From the UHGV virus genome UHGV-1834291: DNA of 17,593 nt; one strand, written 5' to 3'. How positions within the stretch are numbered: position 1 is the stretch's first letter; the number at the start of each line of letters is the position of its first letter. The position numbers were made by a program, and so were the translations under genes. The notes beneath the pieces were generated by a model. The model ran no database searches and was not told the origin of the DNA. It saw only the letters and a list, made by a program, of their open reading frames with translations. Below, piece after piece: positions 12,730 through 17,593 of the stretch. The stretch is from a virus.

Positions 12730-12900
12730 ATGTCACTTGCAACCACAGTGAAGGAGAGCAAGTTACAGAGACGCATGTACACGCAGAAAGCTCTCTGGTA
12801 TCGCCATAATGGTGACCGCGAAGGAATGCGGGTATGCCTTAATTTGTCCCGAGTTGAAGTATTAAATCAGCGTTATTTCCTTGGGCCGTGTCCATTCTGA
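12730..12900 (+). CDS. Small ORF (56 aa) immediately upstream of erf (P22 arf position)
   Basis: ATG 12730 with strong RBS AAGGAGA 5 nt upstream; MSLATTVKESKLQRRMYTQKALWYRHNGDREGMRVCLNLSRVEVLNQRYFLGPCPF; ends 10 nt before erf ATG. Confidence 0.35.
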   Translation: MSLATTVKESKLQRRMYTQKALWYRHNGDREGMRVCLNLSRVEVLNQRYFLGPCPF

Positions 12901-12910
12901 GAACAATCAT

Positions 12911-13516
12911 ATGAGCAAAGAATTTTACGCAAGACTGGCAGCTATTCAGGAGAATCTGAACGCGCCAAAGAATCAGTACAACTCATTCGGCAAATATAAA
13001 TACAGAAGCTGCGAAGACATTCTTGAAGGCGTTAAGCCGTTACTGAATGGCCTGTTTTTATCAATCAGCGATGAAGTTGTGTTGATTGGTGATCGGTATT
13101 ACGTGAAAGCCACAGCAACTATTACCGATGGCGAAAACAGTCATACAGCAATCGCTCTTGCACGAGAGGAAGAAAGCAAGAAAGGAATGGATTCTGCACA
13201 AGTTACGGGAGCTACAAGCTCTTATGCACGCAAGTATTGCCTCAATGGTTTGTTCGGCATTGATGATGCGAAAGATGCAGATACAGACGAGCATAAACAT
13301 CAGCAGAACGCAGCAGCAAAGCAATCAAAACCATCACCTACACCTGAACAGGTTCTAAAAGCATTCACTGACGCAGCAATGCAGAAAAACACCGTAGAAG
13401 AGCTTAAACAGGCGTTCGCCAAAGCGTGGAAGATGCTCGAAGGCACACCGGAGCAGCACAAAGCGCAGGACGTTTACAACATCAGACGAGATGAATTAGA
13501 AGGAGCGGCTGCTTAA
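12911..13516 (+). CDS. erf: Erf single-strand annealing recombinase (P22 Erf-like)
   Basis: Trimmed to ATG 12911: MSKEFYARLAAIQENLNAPKNQYNSFGKYKYRSCEDILEGVKPLLNGLFLSISDEVVLIGDRYYVKATATITDGENSH..., matching the P22 Erf N-terminal domain from memory; C-terminal domain divergent. Confidence 0.9.
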   Translation: MSKEFYARLAAIQENLNAPKNQYNSFGKYKYRSCEDILEGVKPLLNGLFLSISDEVVLIGDRYYVKATATITDGENSHTAIALAREEESKKGMDSAQVTGATSSYARKYCLNGLFGIDDAKDADTDEHKHQQNAAAKQSKPSPTPEQVLKAFTDAAMQKNTVEELKQAFAKAWKMLEGTPEQHKAQDVYNIRRDELEGAAA

Positions 13517-13899
13517 TGGCACATTCGATTACTGTAAGACTAAACAAGCCCGTAAGAGAGTTTCAGGCCGGGGAAAATATCGGATTCAACATCCGTGCTG
13601 GCGTTCAGTATTACGATCGCCAGACAAAAAAGAAAGAATGGACAAACTACAGCGCCGTTGTATTTGCCAAGCCGGGAGCGCAAGCGGATTACTACCGTAG
13701 TGTTCTTGTTGAAGGTGGCATTGTGGAAATTACCGGAGAAAACATCAGGGTTGATGTTTATCAGGGGCAAAATGGTCAATCAATCACTCTTGAATTACTG
13801 AATGCAAAGATTGGATTTGCAGCTTCAGGAAATGGCCCGCAGCAGCAAAGTAGTAACCAGCAGAACACTCCTGTATACGACGATTCCATCCCATTCTGA
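13516..13899 (+). CDS. SSB-like single-stranded DNA-binding protein (short form with acidic C-terminal tip)
   Basis: 127 aa; OB-fold-like core, Gln/Ser-rich linker, C-terminal DDSIPF resembling the SSB tail DDDIPF; ATG overlaps erf stop (TAATG). Confidence 0.7.
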   Translation: MAHSITVRLNKPVREFQAGENIGFNIRAGVQYYDRQTKKKEWTNYSAVVFAKPGAQADYYRSVLVEGGIVEITGENIRVDVYQGQNGQSITLELLNAKIGFAASGNGPQQQSSNQQNTPVYDDSIPF

Positions 13900-13922
13900 T
13901 TTAGAAAAATAAGGGTTCCATT

Positions 13923-14219
13923 ATGCCAGCGCCTCTGTATGGTGCGGATGACCCGCGCCGCTGTTCCGGCAATTCCGTATCGGAGGTGCTGGAAAGTATC
14001 AAGAATAATCTCGGCGCGTTTCTTGCTCTGCCACCAGAAACAAAAGCAGAACGGAAGTACCGACGCGATATACAACTCGCAGAAAAACAGGAAAAAGACC
14101 GAATAAACGAAACATCAATCCGACCATTCCGCAAAGCCACATATACCCACTTCCCTGAATATATCGACCCGCGCCTGCGTAATTACCGCTCACGCTATGG
14201 CGCTATCAGTAATGACTGA
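13923..14219 (+). CDS. Hypothetical protein, 98 aa
   Basis: ATG 13923, RBS AAGGG; [52 protein letters not shown]...; no recognised motif. Confidence 0.45.
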
Positions 14220-14229
14220 GGAATTTACC

Positions 14230-14397
14230 ATGAGAGGACTTGCATACAATCCCGGCATTCTTCCGGCAGAAATGATTATTCGCCAACGCGTAAAGCCAAT
14301 GCCATCGAGAGAGGAATTGCTTAAGAGAAATTCTTTTCCTTCAGTGAATCAAAACAAATATCTGAATGCGATGTGGCGTAAAGGAGGCAAGCAGTGA
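14230..14397 (+). CDS. Hypothetical protein, 55 aa
   Basis: ATG 14230 with RBS GAGGA 7 nt upstream (in-frame ATGs at 14197 and 14212 lack an RBS); [55 protein letters not shown]. Confidence 0.35.
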
Positions 14398-14693
14398 GTG
14401 TATATCTTATTGATAAACGTCGACGTGGGCAACAAATACCACCTGTAGGAATTCCGAATCACACATGGTTTTGCGTACTTGATATCGATGGTATGGATGC
14501 GTTGGTTGACACTCGTCATTACTGCGATACCGCAACAGCTACTCCGGCGAAAGCAAAGAAAATGGCTGCTCTGATAGAAAACTGGACTCCACCTGATGGT
14601 TGGTGCAATGGGAATGATCGAGATTGGCATGAAAAAATGAAGGGCTATATCTGCGATTTCTTACGTAAATGCAACGGATTCAGGGTGATGTGA
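14394..14693 (+). CDS. Hypothetical Cys/His-rich protein, 99 aa (possible metal-binding)
   Basis: GTG start 14394 with RBS AGGAGG 6 nt upstream, overlapping the previous stop (GTGA); Cys/His clusters [33 protein letters not shown]. Confidence 0.5.
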
Positions 14694-14694
14694 C

Positions 14695-15471
14695 ATGAAC
14701 AAGATTGACTATCAGGCACTGCGTGCCAAGGCAGAAAAAGCAACGTGTGGTGAGTGGTCGCTCGAATATGGAGATGGCCGATTTGATGGTGATGATGCAC
14801 TAATTCATCGTGAAGTTGCTGGATATATTCCCATTTGCAGAATTGAAGGAGCGCATCCAGAAAGCGGTTTCGATGAAGATTTCCAAATGGAACAGCAGGC
14901 CAATGCTGAATTCATCGCCGCAGCCAATCCGGCTACCGTCTTGGCGCTGCTGGATGAGCTGGAAAGAAAACAGCAATACATCAAACGCCGCGACCAGGAG
15001 AACGAGGATATTGCGCTAACAGTAGGGAAACTGCGTGTTGAGCTTGAAACAGCAAAATCAAAACTCAACGAGCAGCGTGAATATTACGAGGGAGTAATCG
15101 TGGATGTGAGTAAGCGCATAGCAGAACTGGAAGCCGAACCTGTAAGCCAGGCTTACAAGTTGAACGCGCTGGCTGGCAACTCTCCGGTAACTCCAGATGG
15201 TTGGATAAGCTGTAGTGAGCGAATGCCTGTAATTGGCGAGCTAAATTGGAGAACTAGTTTTCCTTTACTGGTTACGTGTGAGATCGGCGTTATACCTGCT
15301 TATTACGGCTTTGTGAGAGTTAATGGGAATAAGCATTATGGTTTTATGGAGAGTCTTAAATATGGAGATGGTAGCGGCAACCATCCTCAAACTAATGAAT
15401 ATGACCTGATTAGCAATGTCACACACTGGATGCCTCTACCAGAACCGCCTCAGGAGGTTAACCGTGGCTAA
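14695..15471 (+). CDS. Phage protein with coiled-coil N-region and C-terminal DUF551-like domain (Ead/Ea22-like architecture)
   Basis: 258 aa; central heptad-rich segment; C-terminal DGWISCSERMPV...THWMPLPEPP resembles the DUF551 hallmark as I recall it; ATG 14695 one nt after previous stop. Confidence 0.65.
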   Translation: MNKIDYQALRAKAEKATCGEWSLEYGDGRFDGDDALIHREVAGYIPICRIEGAHPESGFDEDFQMEQQANAEFIAAANPATVLALLDELERKQQYIKRRDQENEDIALTVGKLRVELETAKSKLNEQREYYEGVIVDVSKRIAELEAEPVSQAYKLNALAGNSPVTPDGWISCSERMPVIGELNWRTSFPLLVTCEIGVIPAYYGFVRVNGNKHYGFMESLKYGDGSGNHPQTNEYDLISNVTHWMPLPEPPQEVNRG

Positions 15472-15748
15472 TCTGCAACTTGCCGTTAAAGGTGAATACT
15501 TCGATGCCATGATTCGCGGAGAGAAAACGGAAGAGTATCGCCTGTTTAATGACTACTGGAATAAGCGCCTCGTTAACCGTAAGTATGACCGCCTGATTAT
15601 CACAAAGGGATATCCGAAGCGCGACGATTCCAGCCGCAGAATTGATGTTCCGTATGACGGCTATGAAATAAAGACAATCACACATCCCCACTTCGGCGAT
15701 AAACCGGTAAAGGTGTACGCGATAAAGGTGAATATCGGCAATGAATAA
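15464..15748 (+). CDS. ASCH-like domain protein, 94 aa
   Basis: GTG 15464 with RBS AGGAGG 6 nt upstream, overlapping previous gene end; GEKTEEYR fits the ASCH GxKxxExR signature. Confidence 0.55.
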   Translation: MANLQLAVKGEYFDAMIRGEKTEEYRLFNDYWNKRLVNRKYDRLIITKGYPKRDDSSRRIDVPYDGYEIKTITHPHFGDKPVKVYAIKVNIGNE

Positions 15749-15782
15749 CAATCCTCGCACTCGCGGGAATTTCTTTTATCTG

Positions 15783-15807
15783 AACTCGCTACGGCGAGTT
15801 TTGTTTT
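15783..15807 (+). terminator. Intrinsic terminator after the ASCH-like gene
   Basis: aactcgc / gcgagtt 7-bp stem with tacg loop, followed by ttgtttt. Confidence 0.65.
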
Positions 15808-15820
15808 ATGGAGACAAGAA

Positions 15821-16165
15821 ATGTCAGATTTGGCTATGAAGGTTTTGAAATGGCAATCGACTGGCGATGTCGGCATCAGTAGCGCAACTCTTGCCTCAAT
15901 CGCATGTGGACTGAAAAAGAATATCTATGGTCATCACTTCGGCGCTCCACATGACGCAGCCGATTTCCGGCGATGCGTTGCACTTGTTGAGCAGATTCCA
16001 GAAATCAGAGATTCATTCGACAAGGTTGCAAAGCGCGTTCCGGCATTCAAAGGAATCCTCAACGAATGGGATTCACTCGTTGCTCTGTTGAAGTCTGAAA
16101 TGAAGATACACGGAAACAAAGCACCAGAGACTTACAGAAGAATTAGCGAGCTACGCAAGGACTAA
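15821..16165 (+). CDS. Hypothetical protein, 114 aa
   Basis: ATG 15821 with RBS GGAGA; MSDLAMKVLKWQSTGDVGISSATLASIACGLKKNIYGHHFGAPHDAADFRRC...; bracketed by terminator-like hairpins. Confidence 0.55.
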   Translation: MSDLAMKVLKWQSTGDVGISSATLASIACGLKKNIYGHHFGAPHDAADFRRCVALVEQIPEIRDSFDKVAKRVPAFKGILNEWDSLVALLKSEMKIHGNKAPETYRRISELRKD

Positions 16166-16166
16166 C

Positions 16167-16228
16167 GCCTCACACTCGATGAGGCCTGTACATATCTGAT
16201 AGATCCGCTATATGGCGGTTTCTTTTTG
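16167..16228 (+). terminator. Terminator-like region after the 114-aa gene (two hairpins, second followed by a U-tract)
   Basis: gcctca/tgaggc 6-bp stem (16167-16185) without U-tract; then ccgc/gcgg short stem (16205-16218) followed by tttcttttt. Confidence 0.4.
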
Positions 16229-16242
16229 CCTGGAGAATTAAG

Positions 16243-16434
16243 ATGACCGATACCAGCCTGATTCCTGAGAAAGAAGTGATGAACAAGCTCGGTGTTTCAT
16301 CACGTCAGACAATCTGGAACTATACCAAACGGCACGGATTTCCGAAGCCAGTCAGAACCCACCCCAAATCATACCTTCGTGAAGCTGTTGAGGGGTGGAT
16401 TCTTAACGGTGGCGTTAATCAGAAATGCTCCTGA
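16243..16434 (+). CDS. xis: Excisionase-like small DNA-binding protein (Xis)
   Basis: 63 aa, basic, adjacent to integrase; RBS GGAGA 6 nt upstream; 3' end overlaps the convergent int 3' end by 20 bp. Confidence 0.65.
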   Translation: MTDTSLIPEKEVMNKLGVSSRQTIWNYTKRHGFPKPVRTHPKSYLREAVEGWILNGGVNQKCS

Positions 16435-17593
16435 TGTGCCAGAACAATTTATCAGCGTGAAGCTCATACGCTTTGCGCTGAGCCTCTATCCAGTCGTGTT
16501 TATTGTATACGGACATTATCCCGCCAAGTTCATGACCGAGCATTCGCTCAGTAACATGAGGCTCGACATTCATCTCGGACAGACGTGTAACAAGCGTTCT
16601 TCTGAAATCATGTGTTCGCCAGTAACCTAGATCCATCCCTCCCCTTATTCTATTTACGAATCGGTTGGCTGCAGCGATGCTGATCGGTTTGTTTATGTCT
16701 TCTCCAGGGAAAAGAACATCATTGTACGTTGTCATGGCCTTTTCGAGAAAAGGCTTAATTTGTTCGAAGATTGGACGACGGATAACATTACCCATCTTGC
16801 TATGCTCTTTCGGTACGGTCCATACGTTGTCCAGCAGGTCAAATTCTGTCTTTGTTGCCAGCCTAAGCTCTGAGAGCCTCGCCCCCCACAGCATAAGCAT
16901 CTGATGAAGGAGCTTATTTGACGTAGACGCACGGCTTCTTTCAATAGCAAGCCAAATCTTAGCCAGTTCGTGATACGACAGTACCCGATCCCCTACCTCA
17001 GCGCGGGAGCCGAAGTCCCTTGGCTGGATGCTCATAATTGCGCAACTATCTATCAACTGACGCCGCATGCACCAACTAATTGCTGATCTTAGTTGACTTA
17101 GCACCTGCCTTGCTCGGCGTGGATTATCTTTTTCTTCTTCGGTAAGCAGGTCAACCCATTGCTTAACCGTGATAGAAGATGCCGGACGATTAGGGAAGGC
17201 GTCATGCATGCGCTTCATAACCGTTGATCGGTAAAGTGCCTGGGTCTTTTCTCTGAGAGTTGTAGAGACGTAGTTGTCGAACCAGTAGTCGAGACACTGG
17301 GCGACCGTCATGGAGTTCTCCACCTTCTCTTCAAAATAAGTGCGTGGATCCGTTCCTGAGAAATAGAGCTTTCGCAAGTCAGCAGTGATCTGTCTGGCAT
17401 CCTTCAAAGACAGGGATGGGTATCGACCAAGCCCAAGTCGATTAGGCTTGCCATGCCAGCGATAGCGGTACTGGAACTGGATGACCCCCTTCGGTGAAAT
17501 TCGTACGCTGAGGCCATCAGCATCAGCCACTTCTTGTGGGCCCGAATATGGTTTACCATAAATAGTACGCAGTTTTGTGTCGCTTATAGCCAT
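16415..17593 (-). CDS. int: Tyrosine site-specific integrase (P4-type architecture)
   Basis: 392 aa; catalytic-domain motifs GARLSELRLATKTEFD (Arg box), THDFRRT (H-x-x-R) and LGHELGGIMSVYNKHDW (catalytic Tyr); start codon is the last three bases of the window. Confidence 0.95.
   Translation of the reverse strand: MAISDTKLRTIYGKPYSGPQEVADADGLSVRISPKGVIQFQYRYRWHGKPNRLGLGRYPSLSLKDARQITADLRKLYFSGTDPRTYFEEKVENSMTVAQCLDYWFDNYVSTTLREKTQALYRSTVMKRMHDAFPNRPASSITVKQWVDLLTEEEKDNPRRARQVLSQLRSAISWCMRRQLIDSCAIMSIQPRDFGSRAEVGDRVLSYHELAKIWLAIERSRASTSNKLLHQMLMLWGARLSELRLATKTEFDLLDNVWTVPKEHSKMGNVIRRPIFEQIKPFLEKAMTTYNDVLFPGEDINKPISIAAANRFVNRIRGGMDLGYWRTHDFRRTLVTRLSEMNVEPHVTERMLGHELGGIMSVYNKHDWIEAQRKAYELHADKLFWHIRSISD

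Follow-up and report, generated by a model that had tools for sequence, protein, structure and literature searches.

Does the overlap of two phage genes indicate that their products act together? The question is raised by a 1054-nt region within a 17,593-nt stretch of viral DNA (UHGV virus genome UHGV-1834291, hereafter the window), in which a gene for a 258-aa protein (gene A) runs into the start of a gene for a 94-aa protein (gene B). The initial annotation described the first as a DUF551-type protein and the second as ASCH-like, placed both in an accessory 'ea' region and read their shared junction as the mark of a functional pair. The observation itself is confirmed, and the annotation as a whole is partly supported. 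Based on the genomic and structural data we consider it probable that genes A and B are neighbouring, independently shuffling accessory genes of an HK022/P22-like lambdoid prophage, whereas a dedicated functional pair is weakly supported, since the overlap coincides with a ribosome-binding cassette that belongs to the ASCH gene itself and that many unrelated upstream genes share. Both are real genes rather than chance open reading frames, as indicated by the E-values of their PHROG matches, by their many homologues and by the finding that pieces of the surrounding 2-kb region (window 14394-16434) are matched in 3844 of 5426 complete E. coli genomes. The features of the locus are listed in Table 1.

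Table 1. Features of the gene A-gene B locus, in window coordinates.
Feature	Coordinates	Strand	Evidence
Gene A, 258-aa Ea22-family mosaic	14695..15471	+	ORF; Pfam Ead_Ea22 and DUF551; PHROG
Ead/Ea22-like domain, residues 3-146, with central long helix	14701..15132	+	Pfam PF13935
Linker, residues 148-168, AEPVSQAYKLNALAGNSPVTPDGW region	15136..15198	+	pLDDT < 50 (AlphaFold)
DUF551 domain, residues 169-253, ends in conserved THWMPLPEPP	15199..15453	+	Pfam PF04448
Initiation/junction cassette CAGGAGGTTAACC-GTG-GCTAA	15451..15471	+	sequence; ~49/92 related loci
Gene B, 94 aa, single-domain ASCH/PUA-like beta-barrel (predicted)	15464..15748	+	PHROG 625, AlphaFold, Foldseek
ASCH octapeptide G19-E-K21-T-E-E24-Y-R26, GxKxxExR, 'GKER' type	15518..15541	+	sequence, conservation
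Terminator-like hairpin and T-run, 34 nt past gene B stop	15782..15811	+	pattern scan

The open reading frame of gene A is present as annotated and ends in ...NVTHWMPLPEPPQEVNRG. From the N-terminus on, its product comprises an Ead/Ea22 domain, a long helix and a linker, with DUF551 at the C-terminal end, and it matches PHROGs 250, 60 and 368 with E-values of 1e-51 to 1e-65 (one value 5.7e-65). The DUF551 domain, which the initial annotation had recognized from its terminal motif, was borne out by Pfam (PF04448, 46.4 bits, E 7.2e-12, residues 169-253 on model positions 1-68 of 68; gathering threshold 22 bits). The name DUF551-type protein is nevertheless incomplete, as it missed the N-terminal 146 residues, which match Ead_Ea22 (PF13935, 129.6 bits, E 1.6e-37, residues 3-146 on model positions 2-139 of 139; gathering threshold 27 bits). 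The coiled-coil centre that had been proposed corresponds in the AlphaFold model to one unbroken helix of about 70 residues (residues 79-147, nt 14929-15135; pLDDT 88-98), and the DUF551 part is modelled at a pLDDT of only 42-59.

The two halves of the region match different phages, and no phage record covers 80% or more of its 1054 nt; over nucleotides 1-438 of the query, identity is 93% to genes of Shigella and Stx phages annotated as 'ead/Ea22-like family protein'. In the alignment of homologues several unrelated N-terminal halves converge at the linker of gene A, and the PVTPDGW linker also precedes C-terminal modules other than DUF551, the linker being the point at which varied N-terminal and C-terminal modules join. 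The DUF551 domain itself has 4510 homologues in the database; nearly all of the 120 closest to gene A carry the precomputed PF04448 label, and their N-terminal partners include Ead_Ea22 and dATP/dGTP pyrophosphohydrolase, stand-alone copies occurring as well. Judged from its domain order, gene A is more than a DUF551-type protein, namely an Ea22-family mosaic of the published Ea22_V2 architecture.

The Ea22 architecture, its tetrameric state, its pro-lysogenic phenotype and the DUF551-bearing variant Ea22_V2 have been described (PMC10834534), the tetramer and the pro-lysogenic effect being known for lambda Ea22 and Ea22_V3 only (PMC10834534). Gene A shares with lambda Ea22 and Stx Ea22_V2 the exo-xis position in the pL operon, the Ead/Ea22 N-terminal signature and the long central helix, and with Ea22_V2 also a swappable C-terminal module that is DUF551. 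Lambda Ea22 carries a different C-terminal domain (PDB 8DSX, which our search did not match), and within the Ea22 family gene A is a mosaic of its own. On the model of Ea22 from lambda and Stx phages, the helix of gene A would be expected to oligomerise the protein. The resulting oligomeric scaffold may expose its exchangeable C-terminal domain to some target in the host, and the protein may bias the phage toward lysogeny.

The second gene overlaps the end of the first, as annotated, by 8 nt (GTGGCTAA) and begins at GTG 15464. A start at ATG 15416, given by the mechanical ORF listing (110 aa), was rejected: the codon position that opens M-A-N(-L) is common to all 92 related loci, about a third of which have ATG in place of GTG, and PHROG 625 aligns residues 1-93 on profile positions 1-93 (E 5.7e-50). 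Longer versions of gene B in the database (P0121 and P0122, for example) are fusions produced by read-through or a frameshift and were likewise set aside; in one locus (L004) a 1-nt deletion in the Shine-Dalgarno sequence yields such a fusion. Gene B has 644 homologues in the database, extending to Pseudomonas, Ralstonia and jumbo phages; RefSeq already calls homologues ASCH, and some sources name them 'RNA-binding protein'.

Its assignment to ASCH was upheld by fold and by the GEKTEEYR motif, and fell short in domain searches. Pfam ASCH (PF04266) gives 14.9 bits (E 0.046) over residues 6-48 only, below the gathering threshold of 21.2 bits, so that of the two families named in the initial annotation DUF551 passes its threshold and ASCH does not. 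NCBIfam gives no match, and neither phmmer nor two profile searches of the PDB with gene B returned anything significant by sequence. Comparisons with ASCH proteins align the N-terminal motif region only, as with YqfB (hhalign E 0.12 over 17 columns, residues 10-26 on YqfB 10-26). The sub-threshold Pfam match confined to residues 6-48, the short YqfB alignment and the PDB profile searches would all fit a small beta protein of another kind, in which GEKTEEYR resembles the ASCH signature by chance. We regard this as highly improbable, as the independently predicted fold retrieves almost exclusively ASCH/PUA-like structures from both PDB and BFVD. The AlphaFold model (pLDDT 82) begins with strand 2-8, helix 10-18 and strand 23-27, followed by further elements (DSSP), and its top Foldseek matches in the PDB (2z0t, 3iuw, 1xne, 5gus and 9kyh) are all ASCH/PUA-like and include PH0355, ASC 3iuw, PF0470, ZmASCH and YqfB; the probability is 0.98-0.99 for the top two, with TM-scores of 0.48-0.57 and E-values of 0.025 or worse. 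More distant kin, the YTH/PUA-like readers, rank lower in the list, and the structural matches in BFVD are phage proteins named ASCH or DUF3850. Moreover, among the 125 family members 8 match Pfam ASCH at E < 0.01 and 4 match DUF3850, a sister family of ASCH, and the motif (residues 19-26) sits at the expected junction of helix 1 and strand 2 and is the most conserved stretch of the family. We therefore count gene B as ASCH on its fold matches and its complete conserved octapeptide, despite the sub-threshold Pfam score; the predicted fold is ASCH/PUA-like, at modest E-values.

At the junction, the AGGAGG reported in the initial annotation lies at 15452-15457 and is followed by a 6-nt spacer, the GTG of gene B (15464-15466) and the TAA of gene A (15469-15471). 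This block, AGGAGG-TTAACC-GTG-GCTAA, codes the QEVNRG tail of gene A. In the form AGGAGGTTAACC-GTG-GCTAA it is found joined to ten or more different, unrelated genes upstream of ASCH, whose products share the QEVNRG ending. Between classes of upstream genes nucleotide identity rises only from about position -14. We propose that gene B has in this cassette a conserved initiation site of its own, and that the cassette, of about 14 nt, is a recombination joint onto which varied upstream genes were spliced, which accounts for the same tail on unrelated proteins. Since the stop of the upstream gene falls in codons 2-3 of gene B, coupling by reinitiation is available with any upstream gene. The arrangement of the junction suggests that genes A and B may be translationally coupled, and yet the functional pair that had been deduced from it is unsupported as stated, given the number of unrelated genes to which the same cassette is joined. 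Overlap is also ordinary in this part of the window, where four of the six junctions in 12881-15821 overlap, by 1-23 nt.

In lambdoid mosaics, joints are typically short conserved blocks located where two genes meet, with unrelated sequence on one side. The joint described here is alike in that a conserved boundary block is common to many otherwise different phages, and unlike in that the block is exactly a Shine-Dalgarno sequence, a start codon and an embedded stop. As the block comprises the initiation signals of gene B, the six-residue tail QEVNRG is imposed on whichever unrelated protein lies upstream. Recombination joint and ribosome-binding site thus cleanly coincide in one block, of which we found no description (as a QEVNRG/ASCH joint) in the literature searched, and which illustrates that a shared C-terminal motif or a gene overlap is poor evidence for functional pairing. 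The tight overlap of genes A and B is better read as normal operon packing plus a mosaic joint than as a dedicated system.

How often DUF551 accompanies ASCH was examined in 92 related loci, gathered with an alignment of close homologues (A1) and hence biased toward Enterobacterales; 18 distant loci picked by hand were added to offset the bias. The 92 loci, and the 88 on which the following counts are based, are related prophages and not independent samples. DUF551 lies directly upstream of ASCH and overlaps it in 30 of the 88, a further locus being a fusion, and lies further upstream in another 30, in most of them by one gene, which places it within two genes upstream of ASCH in 61 of 88. It is absent from the 4-kb upstream flank in 27. 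Sorted by their tails, the genes upstream of ASCH in the 92 loci form about 55 classes; in a set of 53 sequences (52 class representatives plus gene A) Pfam assigns DUF551 to 21, gene A included, followed by DUF4752, the TraR zinc finger, Lar and HNH, most having no Pfam family.

These counts bear on whether DUF551 and ASCH make up a true two-component module, the two proteins acting on the same target or binding each other and their adjacency being selected for stoichiometry. We regard such a module as unlikely. It is consistent with the 30 immediate, overlapping neighbours and with most of the other 30 that are one gene off, with phage HK022, in which a stand-alone DUF551 gene directly precedes ASCH, and with the virulent Jerseyviruses AG11 and SETP13, a second lineage that keeps the adjacency despite an inverted order, a DUF551-only gene of 64-69 aa directly following ASCH with a 4-nt overlap. 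However, ASCH is linked through the cassette to ten or more unrelated upstream genes, the upstream flank is devoid of DUF551 in the 27 loci mentioned, and the tail of the ASCH junction is found on only about 24% of the close DUF551 cluster representatives, 76% having non-EVNRG tails. No DUF551 adjoins ASCH in the 11 other lineages examined, which comprise phages of Klebsiella, Pantoea, Ralstonia, Sinorhizobium and Acidovorax, E. coli phage 6947, prophages of Pseudomonas, Uliginosibacterium and Cetobacterium and one metagenomic contig; it has also been lost beside ASCH in Jerseyvirus 'pink', and outside enterobacterial lambdoid and Jersey-like phages the association is gone. In addition, the HWMPLPEPP codons extend the homology by about 25 nt, which could alone favour DUF551-ASCH joints. 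Independent shuffling remains the reading that we prefer.

As an observation in its own right, the proximity in 61 of 88 loci and the reversed adjacency in Jerseyviruses exceed what independent shuffling alone predicts, and this residual association leaves room for a functional link.

The placement of the two genes in an accessory 'ea' region proved correct. Upstream lie abc2 (Pfam 1.5e-42) and a DUF2737 gene, and downstream an xis-like HTH gene and an integrase gene, which puts genes A and B in the exo-xis ('ea') part of the early-left operon, in a layout as in HK022. The order in HK022 is nearly the same: erf-like, a 127-aa gene, abc2, ..., Ea22-like, ..., DUF551, ASCH, ..., a 114-aa homologue of an N15 early gene, xis and int. 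The HK022 ASCH protein is 90% identical to gene B, and its gene is likewise overlapped by the DUF551 gene. Unlike in gene A, where the modules are fused, the Ea22-like and DUF551 modules of HK022 are encoded separately, with a further gene in between (HK022_37, HK022_35 and HK022_34 are an Ea22-like protein, a homologue of the C-terminal half of EaA and a hypothetical protein, respectively); identity between gene A and the HK022 sequence is 82% at the helix end and 43% in DUF551. The window differs further in that its integrase gene is on the opposite strand. We found no paper that links the exo-xis region with ASCH. For the most part our findings tidy the annotation of the locus, as the Ea22 mosaic type is known and the ASCH family is already labelled by RefSeq.

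What gene B might do can be approached through its octapeptide. Among 125 diverse homologues K21 is invariant and G19, E24 and R26 are each conserved in at least 90%. The ASCH octapeptide has been defined as GxKxx[E/T/S]xR, with a catalytic Lys/Glu dyad; Lys and Glu are essential for the removal of ac4C from tRNA by TthASCH, EOLA1 and TRIP4, and free ac4C is not hydrolysed by the GKER-type proteins ZmASCH and TRIP4 (bioRxiv 10.64898/2026.02.27.708502). The 19 ASCH proteins assayed in that preprint include none from phages (bioRxiv 10.64898/2026.02.27.708502). Gene B resembles TthASCH (2DP9), EOLA1, the ASCH domain of TRIP4 and ZmASCH (5GUS) in its predicted PUA-like barrel and in its complete GxKxxExR with both Lys and Glu. 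It differs from these Glu-type proteins in being smaller (94 residues), in falling below the Pfam ASCH cut-off, in being phage-encoded within an early operon, with a putative activity, and in carrying two further family-conserved motifs, GYP (residues 49-51) and THPHFG (73-78), which known ASCH mechanisms do not explain. E. coli YqfB (1TE7, 9KYF), an N4-acetylcytidine amidohydrolase, is a single-domain ASCH protein of similar size (103 aa), matched by Foldseek at a TM-score of 0.55 and with an identical motif register (G19, K21, residue 24 and R26). However, YqfB has Thr24 (GKTR type) where gene B has Glu24, identity in the structural alignment is about 12%, and Glu74 of YqfB is without a demonstrated counterpart in gene B.

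By analogy with these proteins, gene B may bind a nucleotide or RNA in the cleft of its barrel, and its likeliest reaction would be hydrolysis of N4-acyl-cytidine (ac4C), free or in tRNA, through the Lys/Glu dyad, as other Glu-type (GKER) ASCH proteins do so; we put forward this specific activity tentatively. It is also conceivable, if somewhat unlikely, that gene B is a small, non-catalytic PUA-like module that recognizes a modified RNA or DNA base, or simply single-stranded nucleic acid. Its role would then be that of an early regulator, or of a decoy against restriction or defence, and not that of an amidohydrolase. The lower Foldseek matches are indeed YTH m6A readers and SRA/MspJI-type modified-DNA readers, EVE/PUA readers are widespread in modification-dependent systems (PMC7641849, PMC7897488), and the name 'RNA-binding protein' given to some homologues agrees with such a role. 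So do the recurrent neighbours, which include Lar restriction-alleviation proteins, DNA methylases and a fusion of ASCH with PAPS reductase that adjoins a cytosine methyltransferase, and so does one BFVD structural match named 'restriction alleviation protein'. However, a pure reader has no need of an invariant catalytic Lys or of Glu and Arg conserved in at least 90% of the family, phage early regions in general often carry methylase and Lar genes, so that the neighbourhood signal is unspecific, and the PADLOC-DB models give no match at E <= 0.01 to gene A, gene B or three neighbouring genes.

Carrying the catalytic reading further, PHROG 625 would be a viral RNA de-modification enzyme with the recurrent DUF551 neighbour as its targeting or regulatory partner, a combination that we consider quite improbable. 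Expressed from the early-left operon within minutes, such an enzyme would use K21 and E24 to erase the ac4C at the wobble position of the host's elongator tRNA-Met, or to act on another N4-acylated cytidine, and host translation or nucleotide salvage might be retuned during infection or induction. As the ASCH family is common and keeps the Lys/Glu dyad, gene B is a cheap and testable candidate for a phage RNA de-modification enzyme.

In keeping with an operon, a scan of 13800-16700 found no promoter-like site where 4.7 were expected, and no Rfam family was found in the whole window. Past the stop of gene B, the terminator-like hairpin consists of an 8-bp stem (GAACTCGC-tacg-GCGAGTTT) followed by TGTTTTATGG, and is a putative terminator.

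The initial annotation of this region quoted the peptides THWMPLPEPP and GEKTEEYR and an AGGAGG-coupled overlap between gene A (258 aa, DUF551-type) and gene B (94 aa, ASCH-like), and every one of them is present in the sequence; the observation is confirmed and its interpretation is partly supported. The coupled junction had been taken as the sign of a functional pair, a reading that now looks unlikely, as the junction is, on sequence comparison, the region from which the ASCH module itself is initiated, and also a joint of mosaic recombination. The arrangement ...AGGAGGTTAACC-[G/A]TG-GCTAA is common to ~49 loci, ~20 of them with an upstream gene that is not of the DUF551 type, and the upstream genes at this cassette, whatever their family, all end in a QEVNRG tail, the stop codon of the upstream frame being provided by codons 2-3 of the ASCH gene (GCT AAC). 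Nucleotide identity among the upstream classes is near random to about -14 and then abruptly exceeds 90%. As unrelated upstream genes share both cassette and tail, and as identity jumps at -14, the junction belongs to the ASCH module. The conserved HWMPLPEPP codons lengthen the joint to ~40 nt for DUF551 genes, and other loci have GGAGGTGAGGTAATGGCTAA instead, a second cassette whose overlap reads TAATG. The overlap of genes A and B is 8 nt; overlap is usual in this operon (4 of the 6 junctions between 12881 and 15821), and in distant lineages, too, ASCH and the gene before it overlap.

Since the alignment of PHROG 625 to gene B begins at residue 1 and the same Met-Ala-Asn start is found in 92 of 92 related loci (as ATG in about one third), the 94-aa reading is correct, and a 110-aa mechanical ORF from the ATG at 15416 is ruled out. 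At one related locus (L004:3386-4285) the Shine-Dalgarno sequence has lost 1 nt (CAGGAGG to CAGAGG), which joins the DUF551 frame and ASCH in a single 299-aa ORF. The 'long' ASCH proteins of the databases (201-267 aa; homologues P0121 and P0122) are likewise read-through or deletion products rather than a natural fusion of domains.

Co-occurrence of the two genes in other genomes, proposed as a check on their pairing, gave a mixed picture. Close ASCH homologues were taken from 80 viral and 12 genome contigs, and the genes immediately upstream of them fell into ~55 classes by C-terminal sequence. Pfam detects DUF551 in 21 of 53 upstream sequences (52 class representatives and gene A), the remainder having DUF4752, a TraR/DksA zinc finger, Lar, HNH or no Pfam family. 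When 88 loci were scored with an HMM made from these loci's own DUF551 matches, DUF551 was immediately upstream of ASCH and overlapping it in 30, fused to it via the 1-nt deletion in one, further upstream, mostly one small gene off, in 30, and absent from the 4-kb upstream flank in 27. There is no DUF551 nearby in 11 other contexts (12 loci, two Pseudomonas prophages being one lineage), namely the phages Klebsiella KLB22 and Eowyn, Pantoea AAS23, Ralstonia YO029_3, Sinorhizobium Phosso, Acidovorax Alfacinha3 and E. coli phage 6947, the two Pseudomonas prophages, Uliginosibacterium, Cetobacterium and a metagenomic contig. Conversely, when 113 representatives of close DUF551 clusters, all with an intact C-terminus, are compared, only 27 have an EVNRG-type tail; the others have different tails (L, QEVK, EQDGE and RLKEL among them), pointing to different downstream genes. 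A stand-alone DUF551 gene adjoins ASCH on the upstream side in HK022. Unlike the lambdoid order, that of the virulent Jersey-like Salmonella phages AG11 and SETP13 is reversed, a 64-69-aa DUF551 gene lying directly downstream of ASCH with a 4-nt overlap (L093:2501-2967, L108:1501-1982), and in the Jerseyvirus 'pink' (L109) DUF551 is absent beside ASCH. The reversed arrangement leaves room for a true functional link between DUF551 and ASCH, yet such a link is rather unlikely, since adjacency is frequent within enterobacterial phages but facultative in both directions, and conserved synteny together with the shared joint largely accounts for it.

Gene A itself is a mosaic gene, as judged from its domains and matches. 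Pfam places Ead_Ea22 at residues 3-146 (1.6e-37) and DUF551, as the initial annotation had proposed, at residues 169-253 (7.2e-12), both above threshold. In the AlphaFold model residues 79-147 form a single long helix (pLDDT 88-98), followed by a disordered linker and a beta-rich C-terminal part at low confidence. In lambda, Ea22 is an exo-xis protein that forms tetramers and promotes lysogeny. It has a coiled coil between a short N-terminal part and a swappable C-terminal domain, and in the Stx-phage variant Ea22_V2 the latter is DUF551 (PMC10834534); the architecture of gene A is thus already published. By analogy, gene A may form an oligomeric helical scaffold that displays DUF551 to a host partner and favours lysogeny. 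For its opening 438 nt the matches are Ea22 genes from Shigella and Stx phages; the last 575 nt match other phages. One DUF551 subtype is joined to several unrelated N-terminal halves (alignment A5) at the linker ...AEPVSQxYKLNxLxGNxPVTPDGW, and the closest DUF551 domains also stand alone or follow a dATP/dGTP pyrophosphohydrolase domain. No phage record covers at least 80% of the 1054-nt gene A/gene B region. Both are established families that public genomes already annotate, and the copy described here adds a new mosaic member.

The two genes lie in a plus-strand run of small, tightly packed genes at 12.9-16.4 kb, the exo-xis or 'ea' segment of a lambdoid prophage's early-left operon; the layout and a gene order almost identical to that of HK022 bear out their earlier placement in the accessory 'ea' region. 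A 2.9-kb scan found no internal sigma-70-like promoter, against 4.7 expected by shuffling. The integrase opposes the operon strand and converges on the 63-aa helix-turn-helix gene, their 3' ends overlapping by 20 nt, whereas in HK022 both xis and int point the same way as the operon. Of 5426 complete E. coli genomes, 3844 have pieces of the 2 kb at 14394-16434 and none has a contiguous 80% of it; the accessory region is extremely common, but almost every prophage has reshuffled it.

Genes and signals of the early-left region around genes A and B
Feature	Position	Strand	Remarks
erf-like gene	12881-13516	+	
127-aa gene	13516-13899	+	
abc2	13923-14219	+	Pfam Anti-RecBCD_p2, 1.5e-42
DUF2737 gene	14197-14397	+	
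DUF7739 gene	14394-14693	+	
Gene A	14695-15471	+	
Shine-Dalgarno AGGAGG	15452-15457	+	6 nt before GTG
Gene B start GTG	15464	+	inside final codons of gene A
Gene A stop TAA	15469-15471	+	
Gene B	15464-15748	+	
Terminator-like hairpin and T-run	15782-15811	+	just 3' of gene B; hairpin 15782-15801
114-aa gene	15821-16165	+	PHROG 1229
Terminator-like hairpin and T-run	16205-16228	+	just 3' of 114-aa gene
63-aa helix-turn-helix gene	16243-16434	+	xis/AlpA-like
Integrase, 392 aa	16415-17593	-	start codon is final base triplet of window

As fold, motif and existing annotation agree on ASCH, we accept gene B as a member of that superfamily; the earlier assignment stands by predicted fold and octapeptide and falls short of the Pfam-defined family (14.9 bits, below the 21.2 cut-off). 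NCBIfam returned nothing, and a PDB sequence search returned nothing significant for gene B alone or for two family profiles. Among 125 diverse homologues, 8 reach E < 0.01 for ASCH and 4 for the sister family DUF3850; RefSeq and UniRef name the homologues 'ASCH domain-containing protein'. When the AlphaFold model (mean pLDDT 82) is compared with the PDB, ASCH/PUA-like structures rank top (PH0355, Enterococcus 'activating signal cointegrator' 3iuw, PF0470, ZmASCH and YqfB; probability <=0.99, TM-score 0.48-0.57, E only 0.025 or worse), with YTH and other remoter PUA-like readers below, and among viral models its matches bear the names ASCH or DUF3850. Residues 19-26, G-E-K-T-E-E-Y-R, which the model places at the helix1-strand2 junction, are of the 'GKER' type of the ASCH octapeptide GxKxx[E/T/S]xR (bioRxiv 10.64898/2026.02.27.708502); across the family K21 never varies, and each of G19, E24 and R26 is kept by at least 90% of members. 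K21, E24 and R26 coincide in number with K21, T24 and R26 of the E. coli ac4C (N4-acetylcytidine) amidohydrolase YqfB (sequence identical to PDB 1te7), whose residues 10-26 hhalign aligns, weakly (E 0.12), to residues 10-26 of gene B. H74 shares its number with the YqfB general acid Glu74, an equivalence supported by no alignment. The phage family has nearly invariant motifs of its own, GYP (49-51) and THPHFG (73-78; window 15610-15700), which lie outside published ASCH mechanisms.

Gene B would be a nucleotide- or RNA-binding barrel. Because Lys and Glu are essential in TthASCH, EOLA1 and TRIP4-ASCH (bioRxiv 10.64898/2026.02.27.708502), we propose N4-acetylcytidine, free or within tRNA, as its most likely substrate, to be hydrolysed via K21 and E24. 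Some Glu-type ASCH proteins leave free ac4C uncleaved (same preprint). ZmASCH is a ribonuclease, and no link of the exo-xis region to ASCH was found in the literature searched. A phage-encoded ac4C eraser has a slim chance of being real, and it is the sole reading that, if true, would raise the interest of the finding. The main rival to hydrolysis by gene B is a non-catalytic reader or an anti-restriction role, at which recurrent Lar, methylase and PAPS-reductase neighbours hint. In Acidovorax phage Alfacinha3, gp49 (L099:1501-2880) has ASCH fused N-terminally to a PAPS-reductase domain (Pfam 6.9e-27), three genes (~1.5 kb) downstream of a cytosine-specific methyltransferase, a context suggestive of a connection with the chemistry of nucleic-acid modification. 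A DNA methylase lies near the ASCH gene of a Pseudomonas prophage, and Lar-type restriction-alleviation domains recur beside, or apparently fused to, this ASCH family in unrelated hosts (L105:2231-3004, L107:3967-4275, two upstream classes in alignment A4, and BFVD A0A8S5UN54).
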